Shown here one piece after another: positions 18,955 through 45,844 of a DNA stretch of 64,000 bases. The translations under genes were made by a program, and so were the position numbers. How positions within the stretch are numbered: the first letter of the stretch is position 1; each line of letters opens with the position of its first letter. Below the pieces are notes generated by a model, which worked only from the letters and a program-made list of their open reading frames with translations, was not told where the DNA came from and ran no database searches. Source of the stretch: a virus (taxonomy: Duplodnaviria; Caudoviricetes); IMG/VR virus record IMGVR_UViG_3300027759_003166. The stretch is one strand, 5' to 3'.

Positions 18955-19626
18955 TTATACTACTTCTGGAAACAATACTTCACGTACAAATCTCTTGATA
19001 ACAGGTTCTGCCACACCCATGCTAACCATACTGCGTATAACATGTGGATTCTGCTTTTGATAGTGACAATAACGATTCTGCGCCATATGATAATCCGCTG
19101 CATCTTGCTGCGTATTTCCTACGTTTTTTACATAATAATCTAAACTATCCAGGGCTAATTGACATAAATCGTCGAGTTCTTTGCCTTCTTGTACATTACC
19201 CGCAGCAACCATGTTATCGCTAAAGATGTTACGTGCCCATTCTGGAAGTTCTCTAGACTTTTGCCATCCGTATTTTTTAGTCTCAATACCAAACCAACGC
19301 ATCATGTCATGGTTAGAATCACCTGCCGAACTGAAATCACAGAAAGCACCTGTGATCTTATTAGGGCCACATACAGCATCAAATCCCCAAATTGGACTTG
19401 GATCGTTAAAATGTGGGAATATGGTACAATGTAATATATAGATTTTGTGAGTTTCTCTATTATCTACAATTTCTATATGTGCTCTACGATAACGCGGACT
19501 TGACCAAAGTTGATTATGCCAGTTATAGTCTGTGCCCACGGTGCTATCTATAGGTTCACCTGTAGTATTGAATCGATCTTCAATCTGTTTGGCTAATTGC
19601 TCAATTTTGTTCCAAACTACTGTCAT
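18955..19626 (-). CDS. pcyX: Ferredoxin-dependent bilin reductase (PcyX/PcyA-like)
   Basis: RRAHIE, ILHCTIFP, WGFDAV and QNRYCHYQKQN, matching the PcyA family pattern. It lies directly behind a heme oxygenase. Confidence 0.8.
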   Translation of the reverse strand: MTVVWNKIEQLAKQIEDRFNTTGEPIDSTVGTDYNWHNQLWSSPRYRRAHIEIVDNRETHKIYILHCTIFPHFNDPSPIWGFDAVCGPNKITGAFCDFSSAGDSNHDMMRWFGIETKKYGWQKSRELPEWARNIFSDNMVAAGNVQEGKELDDLCQLALDSLDYYVKNVGNTQQDAADYHMAQNRYCHYQKQNPHVIRSMVSMGVAEPVIKRFVREVLFPEVV

Positions 19627-20146
19627 ATGATTCCATTATTTTAATTGCCCATTCAAAGGCTATATTGGCTTCAACAGCCATATCGTCTGACAACATGGTA
19701 CGTACAGTTTTAATTAACTCGGCACGATCTTCAAACTCTAAATGTGTATGTGGTGCTTCAACAATCTTCTTGATCATTTGTCCACCATGCAAGTCACCCA
19801 TATGCCATGTATAAAGATGTGCCATAACACGAGTAGGATCACCTAATGTTCGTATATAACTAACATACTCTTTGGTCACTTCTTTATAGGTATTGAAACT
19901 GCCTACAGGTTTATCCATGGATTCGTAGTCATCCATGATTAATCCTGCACGTTCAAAGCCCGGCGGCAATGCATTTAACAATCCTGCTTTACGAGCAGCA
20001 TGTTCAATTTCTTTATACCAAAGTTGTTTTTGATATGTAAAGTCTACCCATACATCATAGGGTAGAGTTTTGGCAAATACCGCTTTCATAAAAAGGGTAT
20101 CTTCCGCTTTTTGATGTTTATCAGCGGTTAAATCTTTTAGGCTCAT
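19601..20146 (-). CDS. hemO: Heme oxygenase
   Basis: LKDLTADKHQKAE (proximal His) and AHLYTWHMGDLHGGQMI (distal helix). Confidence 0.85.
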   Translation of the reverse strand: MSLKDLTADKHQKAEDTLFMKAVFAKTLPYDVWVDFTYQKQLWYKEIEHAARKAGLLNALPPGFERAGLIMDDYESMDKPVGSFNTYKEVTKEYVSYIRTLGDPTRVMAHLYTWHMGDLHGGQMIKKIVEAPHTHLEFEDRAELIKTVRTMLSDDMAVEANIAFEWAIKIMESYDSSLEQN

Positions 20147-20155
20147 AGTAGTTCC

Positions 20156-20461
20156 TTATTCGGGTTCTACTTTAATTATCAAAGGATACCCCTGTGCTCT
20201 GGCTAAATTGGTTCCGTCAACAGCTTTTTGTTCTGCTACTTCAAAACTATAAATTCCTGCCACAGCACTACCTTTATTATGTATTGCCAGAGTTAATGCA
20301 ATAGCAGACTTTTCATTATGCTTGAATATTGACACAAGCATGGCAATTACAAATTCCACAGAAGTTTGATCATCATTACACACAATGACTTTATACTTGC
20401 TGGGTTCTTTAAGTTTGGCAGTAGTCTTAGACTTTTTGTCTACAATGATATCAGTGGTCAT
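20156..20461 (-). CDS. clpS: ATP-dependent Clp protease adaptor ClpS
   Basis: YKVIVCNDDQTSVEFVI, IHNKGSA...FEVAEQK and YPL. Confidence 0.9.
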   Translation of the reverse strand: MTTDIIVDKKSKTTAKLKEPSKYKVIVCNDDQTSVEFVIAMLVSIFKHNEKSAIALTLAIHNKGSAVAGIYSFEVAEQKAVDGTNLARAQGYPLIIKVEPE

Positions 20462-20477
20462 AATCTTATTTTATAGA

Positions 20478-20493
20478 GGGGGCCGAAGCCCCC
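20478..20493 (-). terminator. GC hairpin with UUCG loop between hsp20 and clpS (terminator or stabilising stem)
   Basis: GGGGGC-TTCG-GCCCCC on the minus strand, with only a weak U tract. Confidence 0.5.
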
Positions 20494-20498
20494 AAACT

Positions 20499-20933
20499 TT
20501 ATTCGCCCTTGAGTTTAAGGACACGTGGTTTCAAAGCATCAGGAACGATACGCTTTAATTTAATGGTAAGCACACCATTCTTGATAGTTCCATCTCCAAC
20601 TTCCATATGTTCAGCTAATGTCCAGCTACGTGTAAAGTCTCGGAATGCAAGTCCACGATGTAAAAATTCAGCAGTTACATCATTGCTTTTATCTCGAATG
20701 CCTTTGACAATGAGTTGATTTTGATCAATCTCAACTGTAACTTCGTCCTTAGCAAACCCTGTAACAGCAATTTCAATCTCGTAAGAGGTGTCGTCGTGTT
20801 TAATAATGTTGTAAGGGGGATAGTTGTCTTTAAGTTGATTTGCAAAACGATGTTCAAAATCTTCAAACATTGTATCAAATCCCAGAAGTGCTCTGTTGAG
20901 AGCGTTGGTGTCGAAACGAGTTAATTGTGTCAT
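20499..20933 (-). CDS. Small heat shock protein Hsp20 (IbpA-like)
   Basis: YPPYNI, IEIAVTGF, FLHRGLAFRDF and NGVLTI. Confidence 0.93.
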   Translation of the reverse strand: MTQLTRFDTNALNRALLGFDTMFEDFEHRFANQLKDNYPPYNIIKHDDTSYEIEIAVTGFAKDEVTVEIDQNQLIVKGIRDKSNDVTAEFLHRGLAFRDFTRSWTLAEHMEVGDGTIKNGVLTIKLKRIVPDALKPRVLKLKGE

Positions 20934-21017
20934 AATTTTTCTCCTTTAAAAGTAAGACAATTTTGGGCACTATGCCCTAAAGTGGGACCCTTAATAGGTG
21001 TCCCACAATATTATTTA
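20934..21017 (-). promoter_or_regulatory. TAAATA promoter plus a three-hairpin ROSE-like thermometer leader of hsp20
   Basis: GTGGGAC/GTCCCAC stem, GGGCA-TAG-TGCCC stem, then TCTTACTT pairing with the SD AAGGAGA. Confidence 0.55.
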
Positions 21018-22919
21018 TTATACAGTCTCTTGAACGTCGGCTGCAACCACGCCATCTTCCGCATCTTTTTTAGCCTGTTCTTCAGCTTTTTTAGCTGCTT
21101 CTTCGGCTTCGTGCTTCTTGGCTGTAATTGGACCCATTGCTTGATAAAGTTTTGGAACGCTGTCTTGAATGATTTTAGGATCATCACCTTTGATAGCATC
21201 ACGAATTGCCTGTGCTGCATCGTCGGCATTGGCCTTTTCTTCTTCAGTAACTTGATCACCAAACTTATCAATATCTGCTTGGAATTCATTTAGGGTAGAT
21301 TCTGCGCTATTACGTGCTTCAATAAGCTCACGTAGTTTCTTATCTGATTCGGCATTAGCTTCGGCGTCTTGAACCATACGTTCAATTTCGTCTTTGCTAA
21401 GTCCGCTATCGGATTTGATAGTGATCTTATTTTCTTGGCCGGTGCCTTGATCCTTGGCACTAATATTCATAATACCATTGGCGTCAATATCCAAAGTAAC
21501 TTCAATTTGCGGAGTACCTTTACGTGCTGGAGGAATTCCACTTAATTTAAATTCACCAAGCAATTTATTGTATTGAACAAAATCACGCTCTCCCTGGAAT
21601 ACTTTAATATCCACAGCAGGTTGATTGTCTTCGGCTGTACTAAACACTTGACTATGTTTGGTAGGAATGGTTGTATTCTTTTGAATCAACTTAGCCATTA
21701 CACCGCCCTGTGTTTCAATACCAAGACTTAGTGGAGTAACGTCCAGCAATAGAACGTCTGTACGTCCACCACCTAATACGTCACCCTGGATAGCAGCACC
21801 AGCGGCAACTGCTTCGTCTGGGTTAACATCCTTACGTGGTGCCTTGCCGAATAGTTTCTCAACTGTTTCGATAACCTTAGGCATACGTGTCATACCACCG
21901 ACTAAGATAACTTCGTCGATGTCGCTGGCAGTAACACCTGCATCTGCCATAGCAGTTTTGCAAGGCTCAATACTACGTTGGATCAACTCGTCAACAAGCT
22001 GTTCCAACTTCGCACGAGTGATCTTAACATTCATATGTTTAGGACCACTTGCGTCTGCTGTGATGTAAGGCAAGTTAACATCTGTTTGTGCTGAACTTGA
22101 CAATTCAATCTTAGCTTTCTCAGCAGCTTCTTTCAAACGCTGGAGTGCCAACATATCCTTCTTAAGATCAACGCCGTTGTCTTTCTTGAATTCATCGACC
22201 AAGAAATCCATAATACGTTGGTCAAAGTCTTCACCACCTAAGAATGTATCACCGTTAGTAGATAGAACTTCAATTTGTTTGTCGCCATCAACGTTGGCAA
22301 TTTCAATAATAGATACGTCAAATGTACCACCACCTAGGTCATAGACAGCAATCTTACGATCACGCTTGTCTGCTTTATCCATACCATAGGCAAGAGCAGC
22401 GGCAGTTGGTTCGTTGATAATACGTAGAACTTCAAGTCCTGCGATTTTACCAGCATCTTTAGTTGCTTGACGTTGCTGGTCATTGAAGTAAGCAGGTACG
22501 GTAATAACTGCCTGTGTAACTTCATGTCCAAGATAGTCTTCAGCTGTGAGTTTCATCTTACGAAGAACTTCGGCTGAAATTTGTGGAGGGGCAAGTTCTT
22601 GATCATTTGCACTAACCCAAGCATCACCATTGCTGGCTTCGATGATTTTGTAGGGCATTAGATCAATGTCCTTCTGCACAGCTTGTTCTTTAAACTTACG
22701 TCCAATTAGACGCTTGGCTGCATAGATTGTATTTTTTGGATTAGTAACTGCCTGGCGTTTTGCACTGGCACCTACAAGGATTTCATCGTTAGCATAGGCA
22801 ATAATACTAGGAGTAGTTCTTGCACCTTCGCTGTTTTCGATTACTTTGGGGATACCGTTTTCAATAACGGCTACACATGAATTGGTTGTACCGAGATCGA
22901 TACCGATTACTTTACTCAT
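21018..22919 (-). CDS. dnaK: Chaperone DnaK (Hsp70)
   Basis: [25 protein letters not shown] and GGMTRMP. Confidence 0.97.
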
Positions 22920-23002
22920 TATTTCTCCTTTGATTAAGTAAGATTTTTTTGGGCACTATGCCCGATAAGATATCCAATATAGGTATATCGTGCATTTATT
23001 TA
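22920..23002 (-). promoter_or_regulatory. TAAATA promoter plus a ROSE-like thermometer leader of dnaK
   Basis: Same GGGCATAGTGCCC hairpin and TCTTACTT/AAGGAGA anti-SD stem as upstream of hsp20. Confidence 0.55.
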
Positions 23003-23013
23003 TTATAGATAGA

Positions 23014-23292
23014 TCATGTATCTGTGTCAACATGATCGGCAGCTTTTGCTACATTTTTCATTATTTCTATATATTTTTTACTACTCTGCTCCGAATCAAA
23101 ATTGGATATCCTTTGTTCACCTAATGTTTTTAACATTGGATGAATTAACTTTTCTGTGATCCTACGACTCATATTTTCTAAAACCGTGTCTATGTCTTCG
23201 CCCTGGGCAATTTTTTGCATAGCACGACCTGTTTCAAACATTTGAACACGACCGGCCCATGACTCCATAGACTCACCGGGTTTAATTTTCAT
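23014..23292 (-). CDS. Stand-alone glutamyl-tRNA reductase dimerisation-domain-like protein
   Basis: ETGRAMQKIAQGEDIDTVLENMSRRITEKLIHP resembles the HemA C-terminal E..RA...L..G.D...VL..L...LTNKLLH.P. Confidence 0.6.
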   Translation of the reverse strand: MKIKPGESMESWAGRVQMFETGRAMQKIAQGEDIDTVLENMSRRITEKLIHPMLKTLGEQRISNFDSEQSSKKYIEIMKNVAKAADHVDTDT

Positions 23293-24098
23293 TACAAATC
23301 AAATACCAATGTACTAGTAATCTTAGGGGTAGGCATAGGTTCCACATCCATACTTAGTAGATCACCTACCACACGGCTGCGATTCTTGACATTGGTTTGC
23401 CCGAGAACAACTACTCCAAATAATTCTTTATTCTTTTCCACTAGCATAAGCACACAGCGTCCTGCCGGATTGGTAAATCCAGTTTTGCTGATTAGAATAT
23501 TATCGTAGACGAATATATCCGGATTGGTATTTCGTATATTAATATGAATTACTTTTTTACCTCGAGGAATATTCAATACAGCATTACGTTCGTTGGCTAT
23601 TTTTCTAATCACTGGTTCGTCTTTGATTTTATACAAGAACTCAATAAGTTCACGGGCTGTACTCTTATTACCTTCTTTAAGACCTGTGCTATCTACAATT
23701 GTAGTATTTTCTAATGTAATATCTTTGACATAGTTATTGACATCTGACAAGAATTTATCAAAGCCGCCCGGATGATGATAGGCTAATGTTTCTGCTGCTC
23801 TGTTATCACTGCTGATTATCATTGATCGCATTAGATCCATACGAGTCATGTATACACCTCTGGGTACATGACCTTTGCTCCGACCGTCAACAAATATCTT
23901 CTCGTTAAGATCCGCACCACTACGTATCACAGTTATAGCTGTGAATAATTTTGTAATGCTGGCAATGCTGCGTACTTCCATATGGTTGTATCTCACAGCA
24001 TACATGGCTGCGTTATAATCATAAAGGGCATAGGATCCAGTTTCTCCGTATGCCGACAAGGACATTAACATTGAAAGTATAATAAAGAGTTTTTTCAT
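23292..24098 (-). CDS. Peptidase S11 D-Ala-D-Ala endo/carboxypeptidase (PBP7-like)
   Basis: Signal peptide, SITK (SxxK), SDN (SxN) and KTG. Confidence 0.9.
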   Translation of the reverse strand: MKKLFIILSMLMSLSAYGETGSYALYDYNAAMYAVRYNHMEVRSIASITKLFTAITVIRSGADLNEKIFVDGRSKGHVPRGVYMTRMDLMRSMIISSDNRAAETLAYHHPGGFDKFLSDVNNYVKDITLENTTIVDSTGLKEGNKSTARELIEFLYKIKDEPVIRKIANERNAVLNIPRGKKVIHINIRNTNPDIFVYDNILISKTGFTNPAGRCVLMLVEKNKELFGVVVLGQTNVKNRSRVVGDLLSMDVEPMPTPKITSTLVFDL

Positions 24099-24310
24099 AT
24101 TGAGTATTTAAGTGCAAAAAAAGTAGCGAATTTTTCAGTATTGAATGCAAAGATAGCATGTCGAGGCCTAGGTGAGTCTGTTATAGTAAATTCAGTAGAG
24201 CTCACATAAGTAAACTCAAAGTCTATACCTTGTATCATACCTTGCTGTCTAAGTTCTCTAACTATTTCCATAGTTCTTTGGGCATCTATGTATAAGGTAA
24301 CGGTCTTCAA
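24095..24310 (-). CDS. Small phage protein, F-x-L-[RK]-[WY]-S family
   Basis: C-terminus ATFFALKYSI; translationally coupled array member. Confidence 0.6.
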   Translation of the reverse strand: MKTVTLYIDAQRTMEIVRELRQQGMIQGIDFEFTYVSSTEFTITDSPRPRHAIFAFNTEKFATFFALKYSI

Positions 24311-24603
24311 GAGTACCTCAATATAAACATAGTCGCATCTTTTTCATCTTTGAAATAGAATTTTTTATCCTTCTCAAACCAACGTGCGCCACTCTTGCCG
24401 AAGTGTTCTCTACACCAAGCCAGAGCAGGAGTGACTATATCATCGTATTTGTTCTTATCAGTAACAGGCAGTGATACCCAATGATATTCGCCAAGCCAAC
24501 TTTTGGCCGTGCCTTTCTTCATTGGTGTAAGTTCAGGCTCCAATGTGACACCATTAAATGGGCTTGTATTAAAAACAGGAATTGTTGTTGCCATTATGAC
24601 CAC
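24307..24603 (-). CDS. Small phage protein, F-x-L-[RK]-[WY]-S family
   Basis: C-terminus KDATMFILRYS. Confidence 0.65.
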   Translation of the reverse strand: MVIMATTIPVFNTSPFNGVTLEPELTPMKKGTAKSWLGEYHWVSLPVTDKNKYDDIVTPALAWCREHFGKSGARWFEKDKKFYFKDEKDATMFILRYS

Positions 24604-24821
24604 CTTAATATAAACATAGTGTAATCTTTATCTTCGTTCCAAATACACCATTCAAAATCATCATCAACTAAAATATTAAATTTACCTAACAATTCTCTTG
24701 ATACCGCCCTAGTTCTTTTTTCTTGCGGCAATTCCATCATATCAGACACTAATGGGTCCAATTGCCTTAGTAGCCTTGAAAAATTATTTAGTTCATGATA
24801 TGGAGTTTTAATCATGACCAC
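24594..24821 (-). CDS. Small phage protein, F-x-L-[RK]-[WY]-S family
   Basis: C-terminus KDYTMFILRWS. Confidence 0.65.
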   Translation of the reverse strand: MVMIKTPYHELNNFSRLLRQLDPLVSDMMELPQEKRTRAVSRELLGKFNILVDDDFEWCIWNEDKDYTMFILRWS

Positions 24822-25129
24822 CTCAATATAAACATAGTACGATCACGTTCTTCACAGAACCAATACTTACGATCACTGCCAACCCAACGAGCATTTTCTT
24901 TGAGCCAATCAGATTCTCCCATAGTATCCGCCATCCACTCACCCATCTCATACCACTCTCCGGAATCGTAGTTGTATGGTCGAACCCAATAGGGCCATTT
25001 AGGTTGATTATCAGCATAGCCAGTTTCAAGGCGTTTCATGTTGATTTCGTTTATCCATTCGTCGGCCATGTCGGATATCCATCTATCTTTGGCCATAGCA
25101 CGTTTCTTAAGCATTAAATATTTTCCCAA
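24812..25129 (-). CDS. Small phage protein, F-x-L-[RK]-[WY]-S family
   Basis: C-terminus RDRTMFILRWS. Confidence 0.65.
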   Translation of the reverse strand: MGKYLMLKKRAMAKDRWISDMADEWINEINMKRLETGYADNQPKWPYWVRPYNYDSGEWYEMGEWMADTMGESDWLKENARWVGSDRKYWFCEERDRTMFILRWS

Positions 25130-25361
25130 CGTGTTCTACAGTGAGATCATCGTTGGGCACAATAGGAGCGTTCCACATCAAGGCCATTAGCAATGCGTCT
25201 TTATTGCTTTTGAAAACAAAATCCATATAGTTGACATTGGCATGACTTTGGAATCTATCACCAGGCAAGCCAAAATGTTCAATAGCCCATGCACATACGT
25301 CGTTCCATTGTTCCGAGTTTCCAAAATCTCGACTCCATGATATGCGTACTGTACTTGACAT
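25107..25361 (-). CDS. Small phage protein, divergent member of the same family
   Basis: WAIEHFG...FKSNKDALLMALMW. Confidence 0.6.
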   Translation of the reverse strand: MSSTVRISWSRDFGNSEQWNDVCAWAIEHFGLPGDRFQSHANVNYMDFVFKSNKDALLMALMWNAPIVPNDDLTVEHVGKIFNA

Positions 25362-37201: not shown

Positions 37202-37204
37202 GAT

Positions 37205-37226
37205 AAAGAAACCCGCCGAAGCGGGT
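37205..37226 (-). terminator. Rho-independent terminator after tmRNA
   Basis: ACCCGC-TTCG-GCGGGT-TTCTTT; identical to 42325-42346. Confidence 0.85.
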
Positions 37227-37229
37227 CCT

Positions 37230-37478
37230 TGGTTGTTTTGGTAATAAGGTATTTCCTACCTCACCTTAGCCTCAAGCGGCTATGGAATATAAACTATCGT
37301 TTGCCTTTAGTTTGATTTGCTTGATTTACGGTCATCGCCTACCGAGTTGCCGTCGCTGACTATTTGCCCAATCGATTACCAGAGCACCCCCACCTAAATA
37401 TAAATTATACACTTAGGTGGAGGTGGCCGGATTCGAACCGGCGTCTTGAACACATCATCTTTGAAGGGATTACAACTA
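37230..37478 (-). ncRNA. ssrA: Circularly permuted (two-piece) tmRNA
   Basis: Minus-strand order: acceptor piece ending GCCGG-TTCGAAT-CCGGC-CACCTCC-A-CC (to 37416), a 24-nt spacer, then a coding piece starting GGGGGTG (37391). G3-U70 pair present. Tag ORF 37304-37272 reads ANDSLYSIAA*. Confidence 0.88.
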
Positions 37479-37487
37479 TTCTTTTAT

Positions 37488-37802
37488 TTAACGCTGAAAG
37501 CAATTACGCTCACGATAAATTTGTCCATCTGGAGTCTGGATCTCTTTCCAATCAGTACAAACAGTTGTGGGTTGTTGAACAATCACAGGACGTTGAACAA
37601 CTACCGGTTGTTGTTGCACTACGGTTTGAGGTTGATTAGCATTGGCAATAACGGCTCCTGCAATTCCACCGAGTATCAACGGACCTACCCAATCATTGTT
37701 GCGTTCAACAATGACAGTACGTTCTGGATAACGATGATGCCATTGGGCGTTTGCTGCCGTGGCTGCTACCAACATAGTAATTACCAATACAAGTTTTTTC
37801 AT
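37488..37802 (-). CDS. Secreted hypothetical protein with a glycine-zipper-like segment
   Basis: Signal peptide, GPLILGGIAGAVIA, a QP-rich linker and two Cys. Confidence 0.7.
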   Translation of the reverse strand: MKKLVLVITMLVAATAANAQWHHRYPERTVIVERNNDWVGPLILGGIAGAVIANANQPQTVVQQQPVVVQRPVIVQQPTTVCTDWKEIQTPDGQIYRERNCFQR

Positions 37803-44744: not shown

Positions 44745-45844
44745 TATAGATCCGGTAAATCATCATATGTAACACTATCACTCATCACTCCGATAACATA
44801 GTTTGTACTTTCAGTTTCCTGTAATGCACTTTGCTTCTTGCCAATGTTAACATGTTTATTAAACCATGGAATAGGACTGCTACGTGGATGTTCTTCAGCA
44901 TACTTAATGCCGATATCTTTTAAACGTGTAAATGCTGTATGATCAACAAAGTCTTTTAGAATAGTAGCATTAAGTCCAATTACAGGACCTTTCTTAAACA
45001 AGTAATCTGCCCAAGCCTTTTCTTCTGCAATTACTTCAAGATACATAGCATATACTTCATCTTTACATTCTTCTTCAAGGGCAACAAAGTCTTCGTCATC
45101 TTTAGTAACATTGTTAATTAACCAAGCGGTCCATTCTGTATGTAGGAGTTCGTCTTGGAGGATGAGACTGATGATGTTTCCGTTGCCGATGTAGATTTTG
45201 TTTTCGACCATTGCCAACGATGTAGCGAATGAGACCATAAAGCGGAGCGCCTCAAGTGCATAGCTTGCATGTAATGCCAACCAAATTGCTCGCTTGTGAG
45301 TGTGGAGATCAATTTCCTCGCCCAATTCTTTACGGCAGTTAAGTAAGTGTAGATTTTCATAATGGCGTCCTATGTTAGCAGCCATTTCAACAATTTCTTT
45401 AGTATCGTGGATCTTGTTGAATTCATCCTTGGGCACACTATAGATGTTTCTAATAATGTGACTATATGATTTACTGTGTATGCTGGTTTCGAAAAAACTC
45501 CATGTCAACGCAAGTGCTTCGAGTTCTGGTAGACTGCACACTGGTCCAAAGATCTGAAATGGTGCTCTACCTTGAATACTATCTAATGCTGTTTGTCTTA
45601 GTAGATTGCTGGTGAAGATGTGTTTAACTGCATCGCTGGCTTCCTTGTGATCCATCTTATCTTTGGTAAGACTAATCTCTTCTGGAACCCAAAAGAACCC
45701 ACGGGCTAGTTCTTCGTACTTTTGTAATTTTTGATATTTCACTTCTTCGAAACGTTGTACAGTAACCGGTCCTGCTGGATCCAAAAACATCTTACGTTTG
45801 AGATAGTTTGTTTGTTTTAATAAGTTGTATTGTTCTTTTGACAT
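44744..45844 (-). CDS. nrdB: Ribonucleotide reductase class Ia beta subunit
   Basis: FWVPEEI, ETSIHSKSY, EALRF..SF and DELLH. Confidence 0.95.
   Translation of the reverse strand: MSKEQYNLLKQTNYLKRKMFLDPAGPVTVQRFEEVKYQKLQKYEELARGFFWVPEEISLTKDKMDHKEASDAVKHIFTSNLLRQTALDSIQGRAPFQIFGPVCSLPELEALALTWSFFETSIHSKSYSHIIRNIYSVPKDEFNKIHDTKEIVEMAANIGRHYENLHLLNCRKELGEEIDLHTHKRAIWLALHASYALEALRFMVSFATSLAMVENKIYIGNGNIISLILQDELLHTEWTAWLINNVTKDDEDFVALEEECKDEVYAMYLEVIAEEKAWADYLFKKGPVIGLNATILKDFVDHTAFTRLKDIGIKYAEEHPRSSPIPWFNKHVNIGKKQSALQETESTNYVIGVMSDSVTYDDLPDL

Follow-up and report, generated by a model that had tools for sequence, protein, structure and literature searches.

The window, a 64,000-nucleotide stretch of DNA from a large freshwater T4-like phage, encodes a stand-alone homologue of the dimerisation domain of glutamyl-tRNA reductase (GluTR, HemA/GtrR). 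The protein, P0001, is the 92-residue product of an open reading frame (ORF) comprising 92 codons and a stop at 23014-23292 on the reverse strand, and its assignment draws on a match to the Pfam family GlutR_dimer (PF00745), on an AF2 model and on hhalign profile alignment. The ORF is a real, conserved gene. We put forward, tentatively and with a probability of about 0.4, that P0001 poisons the GluTR subunits of the host, which would spare Glu-tRNA for translation and halt new heme synthesis. The same phage encodes ClpX, ClpS, DnaK, HSP20, a porin, ribonucleotide reductase, a RuBisCO-like protein and many glycosyltransferases, and DNA of the window is present in many lake metagenomes.

The sequence-only reading of this DNA had proposed a lone HemA dimerisation domain, devoid of catalytic and NADPH-binding domains, and had named the GlutR_dimer profile as one means of checking it. 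The proposal is borne out. P0001 matches PF00745 with an E-value of 3.2e-7 and 31 bits, the curated gathering cut-off being 22.9. Residues 9-81 align with profile positions 29-96 of 99 and the part that is missing, positions 1-28, corresponds to the spinal helix. A tblastn search of the window with E. coli HemA as the query found no HemA-like segment, and the GlutR_N domain is absent from three complete phage genomes that carry a P0001 homologue. Lacking both GlutR_N (PF05201) and the NADPH-binding domain (PF01488), P0001 is not a functional glutamyl-tRNA reductase, and the label "glutamyl-tRNA reductase" that some database records attach to members of the family is misleading. The genes that flank P0001 encode an S11 peptidase and DnaK, and the other GluTR domains have left no remains there. 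A comparison with PHROGs assigned P0001 to no family.

The relationship of the P0001 family to cellular GluTR is, as judged from the alignments, remote. BLASTP of P0001 against E. coli HemA gives no match at all. When a family profile is aligned by hhalign to residues 300-418 of E. coli HemA, P0001 residues 9-60 are placed on HemA residues 348-399 with a probability of 78% and an E-value of 1.8e-5. Against PDB sequences a narrow profile reached 4YVQ_A at an E-value of 0.06, and a broad profile did not find GluTR. A homologue search with E. coli HemA returned enterobacterial sequences only, which are too uniform for a useful profile.

Despite this distance the GluTR signature is kept at A24, I/L28, G31, D33, V37, L/M38, M/L41, R44, K48, L49, L50, H51 and P52. 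The pattern in the phage family is A..(I/L)..G.D...V(L/M)..M(S/A).R(I/L)..K(L/M)(L/M)HP and the conserved GluTR helix motif KL(L/I)HxP is present as K48-L-I-H51-P52. The phage family has further residues that do not vary, W12, E20, Y74 and D86-H87, and an invariant C-terminal motif, ADH(V/I). W12 and E20 have no counterpart in the alignment with E. coli HemA, and Y74 and D86-H87 fall outside the aligned part. These phage-invariant positions could mark a different function, a point to which we return.

A word-indexed search identified 51 homologues of 52-99% identity, all metagenomic, 47 of which are 90-92 residues in length. When 1.84 billion representative proteins were searched exhaustively with an HMM, the family grew to at least 196 clusters, defined at 50% identity, with E-values ≤1e-3. 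The best 150 of the 196 clusters include no full-length GluTR and range from 54 to 151 residues, except for three repetitive proteins (1117-2712 residues). Of 106 diverse representatives, 93 match PF00745 independently (E ≤1e-3; best E 8.5e-10), and every other Pfam family is matched by at most one of the 106. The Pfam family Cytochrom_B559, for example, matches a single representative (E 1.4e-10). Divergent copies in other phage genomes also exceed the PF00745 cut-off in four of five cases, and the only leads from a Protein Atlas look-up were of low score (0.77) and pointed to clusters that carried the GlutR_dimer label beforehand.

Nearly all members of the family are stand-alone proteins of about 90 residues on uncultured phage contigs. 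IMG/VR holds 40 loci with a homologue (36-99% identity), and the carriers include complete genomes of 222, 322 and 354 kb. Across 185,579 prokaryote species, each represented by one genome, a pattern-seeded scan found no relative of P0001, and a scan of species genomes for the phage porin, used as a host marker, likewise found no relative; both searches were pattern-seeded and these absences are weak evidence for that reason. A tblastn search of approximately 50,700 GenBank phage records with four diverse family members produced no match and so yielded no cultured carrier or host. The family is apparently restricted to phages and to the stand-alone form, as far as the sequence collections indicate. 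A weak search for longer or fused forms of P0001 found none. One candidate, a 266-residue fusion with rubrerythrin in locus L025, proved to be false; it results from a 75-nt deletion (L025 9983-10783 compared with L028 1012-1887), through which a TTGACA-17-TATAAT promoter was lost together with the 5' part of tRNA-Leu(taa).

The AF2 model of P0001 consists of three helices, formed by residues 9-29, 34-62 and 67-86, with a mean pLDDT of 77.6 and values above approximately 86 over the first 50 residues. Fold searches are uninformative in this case because a helical hairpin cannot be singled out. Foldseek with the model against the PDB returned nothing significant, and in a wide VIA-align comparison 4YVQ_A did align (Z 6.0, rmsd 3.0 over 54 residues) but ranked only 38th, in the company of numerous unrelated helical hairpins.

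A heterodimer with host HemA, which the sequence-only reading had suggested modelling, was assessed using residues 300-420 of the Polynucleobacter GluTR, as a stand-in for the enzyme of the host, and P0001 with a 106-row alignment. The complex scores 0.63, compared with 0.02 for the best of three controls. In calibration 58 of 80 solved complexes attained this mark, as did 2 of 110 mismatched pairs, figures that apply here only approximately because our own alignment was used. At least 64% of contacts are common to the runs, and the partner has a pLDDT of at least 69. In the modelled interface P0001 residues 9-58 lie against GluTR residues 358-407, in register (i, i+349). The arrangement is pseudo-symmetric and formed by homologous helices, as expected if P0001 replaces the second GluTR subunit, and it contains the conserved hydrophobic residues V16, A24, I28, V37, L38, M41, I45, L49 and L50. 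The GluTR is a stand-in, and the result speaks of likeness and not of binding, because GluTR dimers have already been solved. P0001 may well latch onto host GluTR. Homodimerisation of P0001 could compete with such heterodimerisation.

Each monomer contributes three helices to the GluTR dimer, and the HemL dimer is accommodated in the resulting V for channelling (PMC6399207). During infection P0001 would pair with a host GluTR subunit by way of the helices that form this V-shaped homodimer. The product would be a one-armed heterodimer, incapable of forming the GluTR2-GSAM2 channelling complex. Less Glu-tRNA(Glu) would then enter the C5 pathway, charged tRNA-Glu would be kept for phage translation and new heme synthesis would stop. 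In phages of the window type HemO and the bilin reductase would meanwhile degrade existing heme. The weakest step is the direction of the effect, which we infer to be inhibition rather than stabilisation.

The nature of the host matters here. Alphaproteobacteria make 5-aminolevulinic acid (ALA) by the Shemin route, without GluTR (PMC11480375), and in an alphaproteobacterial host the mimic would therefore have no binding target. The window carries a full-length two-piece tmRNA of betaproteobacterial type at 37204-37527 on the reverse strand (RF01850, 149.9 bits, gathering score 84). Three other carriers, one of which belongs to the group with tRNA arrays described below, also have the beta-type two-piece molecule (RF01850; G003 45271-45642, G004 138879-139244 and G005 106356-106767). 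Scores for the beta-type tmRNA are 134-150 bits and in the three other carriers contrast with 31-68 bits for the alpha model. DnaK of the phage shares 67-69% identity with DnaK of gammaproteobacteria. The C5 pathway is the route taken by betaproteobacteria, and Swiss-Prot contains a Polynucleobacter GluTR entry. Judged by the beta-type tmRNA, the host probably does possess GluTR.

A GluTR-unrelated role has to be weighed against the poisoning of host GluTR. P0001 may be an exapted, GluTR-derived helical module that homodimerises and serves, for instance, as an early host-takeover or regulatory factor that binds some other host or phage protein through the family-specific W12, E20, K48, Y74 and D86-H87. 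The remoteness of the likeness to cellular GluTR is in keeping with this, as is the invariance of W12, E20, Y74 and D86-H87, which are unmatched in, or lie beyond, the E. coli HemA alignment. The gene occurs in three distinct contexts, with small early-type genes and further accessory genes around it, and one complete phage (G002) has the gene and no hemO. An unrelated function would not, however, require the whole GluTR interface signature to be kept across at least 196 clusters, and the hetero-complex model with GluTR passes its controls. In addition the AF2 model places W12 opposite H51/P52 and E20 opposite R44/K48, positions whose spacing in the helix hairpin suggests internal packing rather than a new surface. 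We consider this explanation to be doubtful.

To define the three genomic contexts, the window proteins were compared with every locus, and ORF calling, Pfam scans and tRNA scans were applied. In the first, which comprises the window, 19 of the 40 IMG/VR loci and three loci from an exact-protein look-up, the P0001 gene is directly upstream of a chaperone/heme block, [dnaK]-hsp20-clpS-hemO-FDBR (FDBR, ferredoxin-dependent bilin reductase), with the S11 peptidase gene in only some of them. Because these phages are interrelated, the context counts as approximately one observation. In the second context, observed in 18 of the 40 related loci, the gene lies inside a phage tRNA array and on the same strand, nearly always flanked upstream by tRNA-Gly(tcc), at a distance of 5-1230 nt, and downstream by tRNA-Leu(taa), at 14-57 or 513 nt. 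In the differently ordered array of L024 it is flanked by tRNA-Arg(tct) and tRNA-Pro(tgg). Among the tRNAs of the longer arrays is tRNA-Glu(ttc). In the third context, represented by six loci, the gene stands alone on the strand opposite to both neighbours, as expected for a self-contained factor that acts on the host.

The possibility that P0001 spares tRNA-Glu for phage translation, which had been raised from the sequence alone, acquires an unexpected hint from the location of the gene in the tRNA arrays of those 18 loci. The hint is only suggestive, because tRNA arrays attract accessory genes in general. Arrays of 25-28 tRNAs with protein genes interspersed are found at L033 5059-11061 and L043 5138-10904, in L030 and L034-L037, and in others. 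The genes between the tRNAs encode the GlutR_dimer-only protein, Metallophos, an AAA_33 kinase, an RNaseH-like protein (PF04308), a cupin, rubrerythrin, AhpC and an Rpb6/omega-like protein of 80 residues. For another phage protein, vAlaS, it has been proposed that its action allows Glu-tRNA to be retained for translation in the infected cell (PMC11480375). The most complete form of our reading, that of a dominant-negative GluTR mimic, often produced from a tRNA operon, which breaks host dimers, shuts the entry to tetrapyrrole synthesis and reserves Glu-tRNA(Glu), we advance with more hesitation than the poisoning of subunits, and would sooner wager against it than for it.

In the window the gene lies, as the sequence-only reading had it, upstream of the chaperone/heme block, and all of the features in this neighbourhood are on the reverse strand. 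The upstream neighbour at 23292-24098 encodes a Peptidase_S11 D-Ala-D-Ala carboxypeptidase/endopeptidase (PF00768, E 9.8e-31). The ATG of P0001 overlaps the TAA of the peptidase gene in the sequence TAATG (23290-23294), which suggests translational coupling of the two. The peptidase gene is adjacent in L002-L008 and L014 and is absent in 11 other cassette loci. Directly upstream of it, at 24095-25361, are small overlapping ORFs (71-105 residues) with similar C-terminal ends, the copy number of which differs among relatives.

Downstream of P0001 are dnaK (21018-22919, HSP70), the small heat-shock protein gene hsp20 (20499-20933, PF00011, E 3e-15), the ClpA adaptor gene clpS (20156-20461, PF02617, E 8.1e-25), the heme oxygenase gene hemO (19601-20146, PF01126, E 2.6e-13) and a gene for a PcyA/PcyX-like FDBR (18955-19626, PF05996, E 2.4e-19). 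Some relatives are without dnaK and in these hsp20 directly follows the P0001 gene. The nearest homologue of the FDBR in an isolate is that of Pelagibacter phage Mosig, with 41% identity. In L004 (4519-5864) hemO precedes a tandem pair of bilin-reductase genes, which have 42% and 75% identity to the FDBR of the window. Three lake RNA runs produced contigs that match clpS-hsp20-dnaK; none covers 22944-25335, an interval that contains the P0001 ORF, although contigs of this kind cannot show that transcription is absent. In one of the runs, the lake metatranscriptome X7, contigs match window positions 20141-22722 (clpS, hsp20 and dnaK) with zero mismatches. The RNA libraries contain the phage chaperone block, although this may reflect DNA carry-over.

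A sigma-70-type promoter, TTGACA-17-TATAAT, with 12 of 12 matches to consensus, is predicted at 23002-23030 on the reverse strand as the start of the dnaK unit. Its -35 box is encoded by the P0001 codons V88-D89-T90 (GTTGACA). The pattern TTGAC[AT]-N16-18-TAnnnT occurs at the same place in seven relatives (L002, L003, L005, L007-L009 and L014) and just downstream in L026 and L032; in the tRNA-array locus L028 a TTGACA-17-TATAAT promoter follows the gene. Because the promoter overlaps the last codons, the conserved HVDT tail in the phage group of the window is under both protein and promoter constraint. With the predicted promoter between the ORF and dnaK, the ORF would therefore end one transcription unit, and the dnaK block begin another. 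The order in the upstream unit appears to be small early-type genes, then the S11 peptidase gene, then the P0001 ORF.

These observations do not favour the idea, also drawn earlier from the sequence alone, that P0001 could form a heme-control system together with DnaK, ClpS, HemO and PcyX. Such a unit is unsupported because of the promoter in front of dnaK and the content of several genomes. Two of the three contexts are without heme genes, and the block is absent within the locus sequence in 24 of 43 distinct loci (three from the look-up and 21 of the 40 from IMG/VR). No heme oxygenase was found in the complete 354-kb genome G002, which has a P0001 homologue; in G004 hemO is 106 kb distant from the homologue; and Pelagibacter phage Mosig has hemO and pcyX with neither a P0001 homologue nor the chaperone block. 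In the phage group of the window, a loose functional cooperation with the heme genes is possible. A switch from the C5 pathway to the Shemin route in carrier phages was considered and dropped, since ALA synthase was found in none of the five carrier genomes searched.

The neighbourhood also bears on the possibility that P0001 works in the opposite sense, as a positive regulator or decoy. It might titrate a host factor that docks on GluTR, or stabilise GluTR against heme-triggered turnover by Lon and ClpAP, and in that way raise the flux of ALA and heme that feeds HemO and the bilin reductase. In isolation the dimerisation domain of plant GluTR is stable and serves regulation as a docking site, this very domain being bound by the plant repressor FLU (PMC4726326). 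Heme-bound bacterial HemA is degraded by Lon and ClpAP, and ClpS1 recognises plant GluTR (PMC6399207, PMC6597238). Phage vAlaS indicates that some phages boost the supply of ALA (PMC11480375), and clpS, hemO and FDBR neighbour the P0001 gene in 19 loci. Against this, the degradation signal of bacterial HemA is N-terminal, outside the dimerisation domain, in the account of Wang et al. 1999b as relayed in PMC6597238. Many carriers have no adjacent heme genes, the complete genome without hemO has been mentioned, and the predicted promoter puts the gene and the heme block in separate transcription units. No binding protein of the GluTR dimerisation domain is known from bacteria, and this too counts against a decoy or stabiliser. 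On balance a role of this type is improbable.

The members of the cassette have diverged to different extents. Between L003-L010 and the window the GlutR_dimer gene is 51-65% identical, ClpS 57-81% and the S11 peptidase 44-80%, with HSP20, HemO and DnaK mostly at 85-96%. The GlutR_dimer gene is, by our estimates, the fastest-diverging of the cassette, with 62-65% identity where DnaK, HSP20 and HemO have 90-96%. Pairwise dN/dS values are 0.15-0.65 and below 1 in all 21 pairs tested, indicative of purifying selection. This mosaic pattern suggests module exchange or a faster evolution of proteins in contact with the host. Fast divergence fits a protein that has to match a host partner, and is also common for small helical proteins. 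That the ORF is a decaying remnant of a captured hemA, or is spurious with a chance helical match, might be thought from a short helical protein with a modest single-sequence Pfam score but is scarcely credible when 47 of 51 homologues are 90-92 residues long and 196 clusters exist, dN/dS is below 1 in every pair, 93 of 106 representatives match the same Pfam family and no remains of other GluTR domains flank the gene.

Several known systems can be compared with P0001. The GluTR dimerisation domain itself (PF00745; Arabidopsis GluTR-DD, PDB codes 4YVQ and 5CHE; M. kandleri, 1GPJ) belongs to the same family, has the signature A..L..G.D...(I/V)(L/M)..L..KL..(K/R)L(L/I)H.P in common with P0001 and, like the AF2 model of P0001, comprises three helices. 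In contrast to the cellular enzyme P0001 is the product of a separate gene, seen only in phages, and lacks the catalytic and NADPH-binding domains and the spinal helix. FLU demonstrates that ALA synthesis can be regulated through the GluTR dimerisation domain, but it is a membrane TPR protein that binds to the outside of the domain dimer and is not homologous to P0001 (PMC4726326). The phage genes hemO, pcyA/pcyX/pebS and vAlaS (PMC11480375; Chen et al., bioRxiv 10.1101/2020.02.13.942896) share a habitat with P0001, being found in similar large freshwater phages. The P0001 gene adjoins hemO and FDBR in the 19 loci noted above, and the benefit proposed for it is that suggested for vAlaS (PMC11480375). 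A search of five carrier genomes did not find vAlaS. The products of these phage genes are enzymes that add a reaction, whereas P0001 is noncatalytic and would bind an enzyme of the host.

The logic proposed for P0001 is that of eukaryotic microProteins and related dominant-negatives, such as the Id proteins and LITTLE ZIPPER, which consist of an interface only and form non-productive heterodimers. Id proteins and LITTLE ZIPPER target transcription factors of their own genome, whereas the target of P0001 would be a metabolic enzyme of the host. To our knowledge there is no example of a viral dominant-negative "interface-only" protein directed against a host metabolic enzyme. A full-text search of the literature did not find a description of a phage-encoded GluTR dimerisation domain, and papers on the tetrapyrrole genes of related phages (PMC11480375; bioRxiv 10.1101/2020.02.13.942896) make no mention of the P0001 gene.

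In most bacteria tetrapyrrole synthesis is entered by way of GluTR, a step under tight control, and GluTR is the sole enzyme that diverts an aminoacyl-tRNA from translation into tetrapyrrole synthesis. A large and apparently phage-restricted family reduced to the pairing surface of GluTR points to phage interference with this step through protein mimicry, in place of an added enzyme. Recognition of the family would correct automatic annotations that count genes of the P0001 type as biosynthetic auxiliary genes, and with one small protein the hypothesis that phages free Glu-tRNA (PMC11480375) becomes directly testable. If our reading is true, P0001 would be a means, natural in origin and genetically encodable, to inhibit (or stabilise) ALA synthesis in bacteria. 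Should it be the dominant-negative reading that is true, P0001 would be the missing inhibitory half of the model of tRNA-Glu sparing put forward for phage vAlaS.
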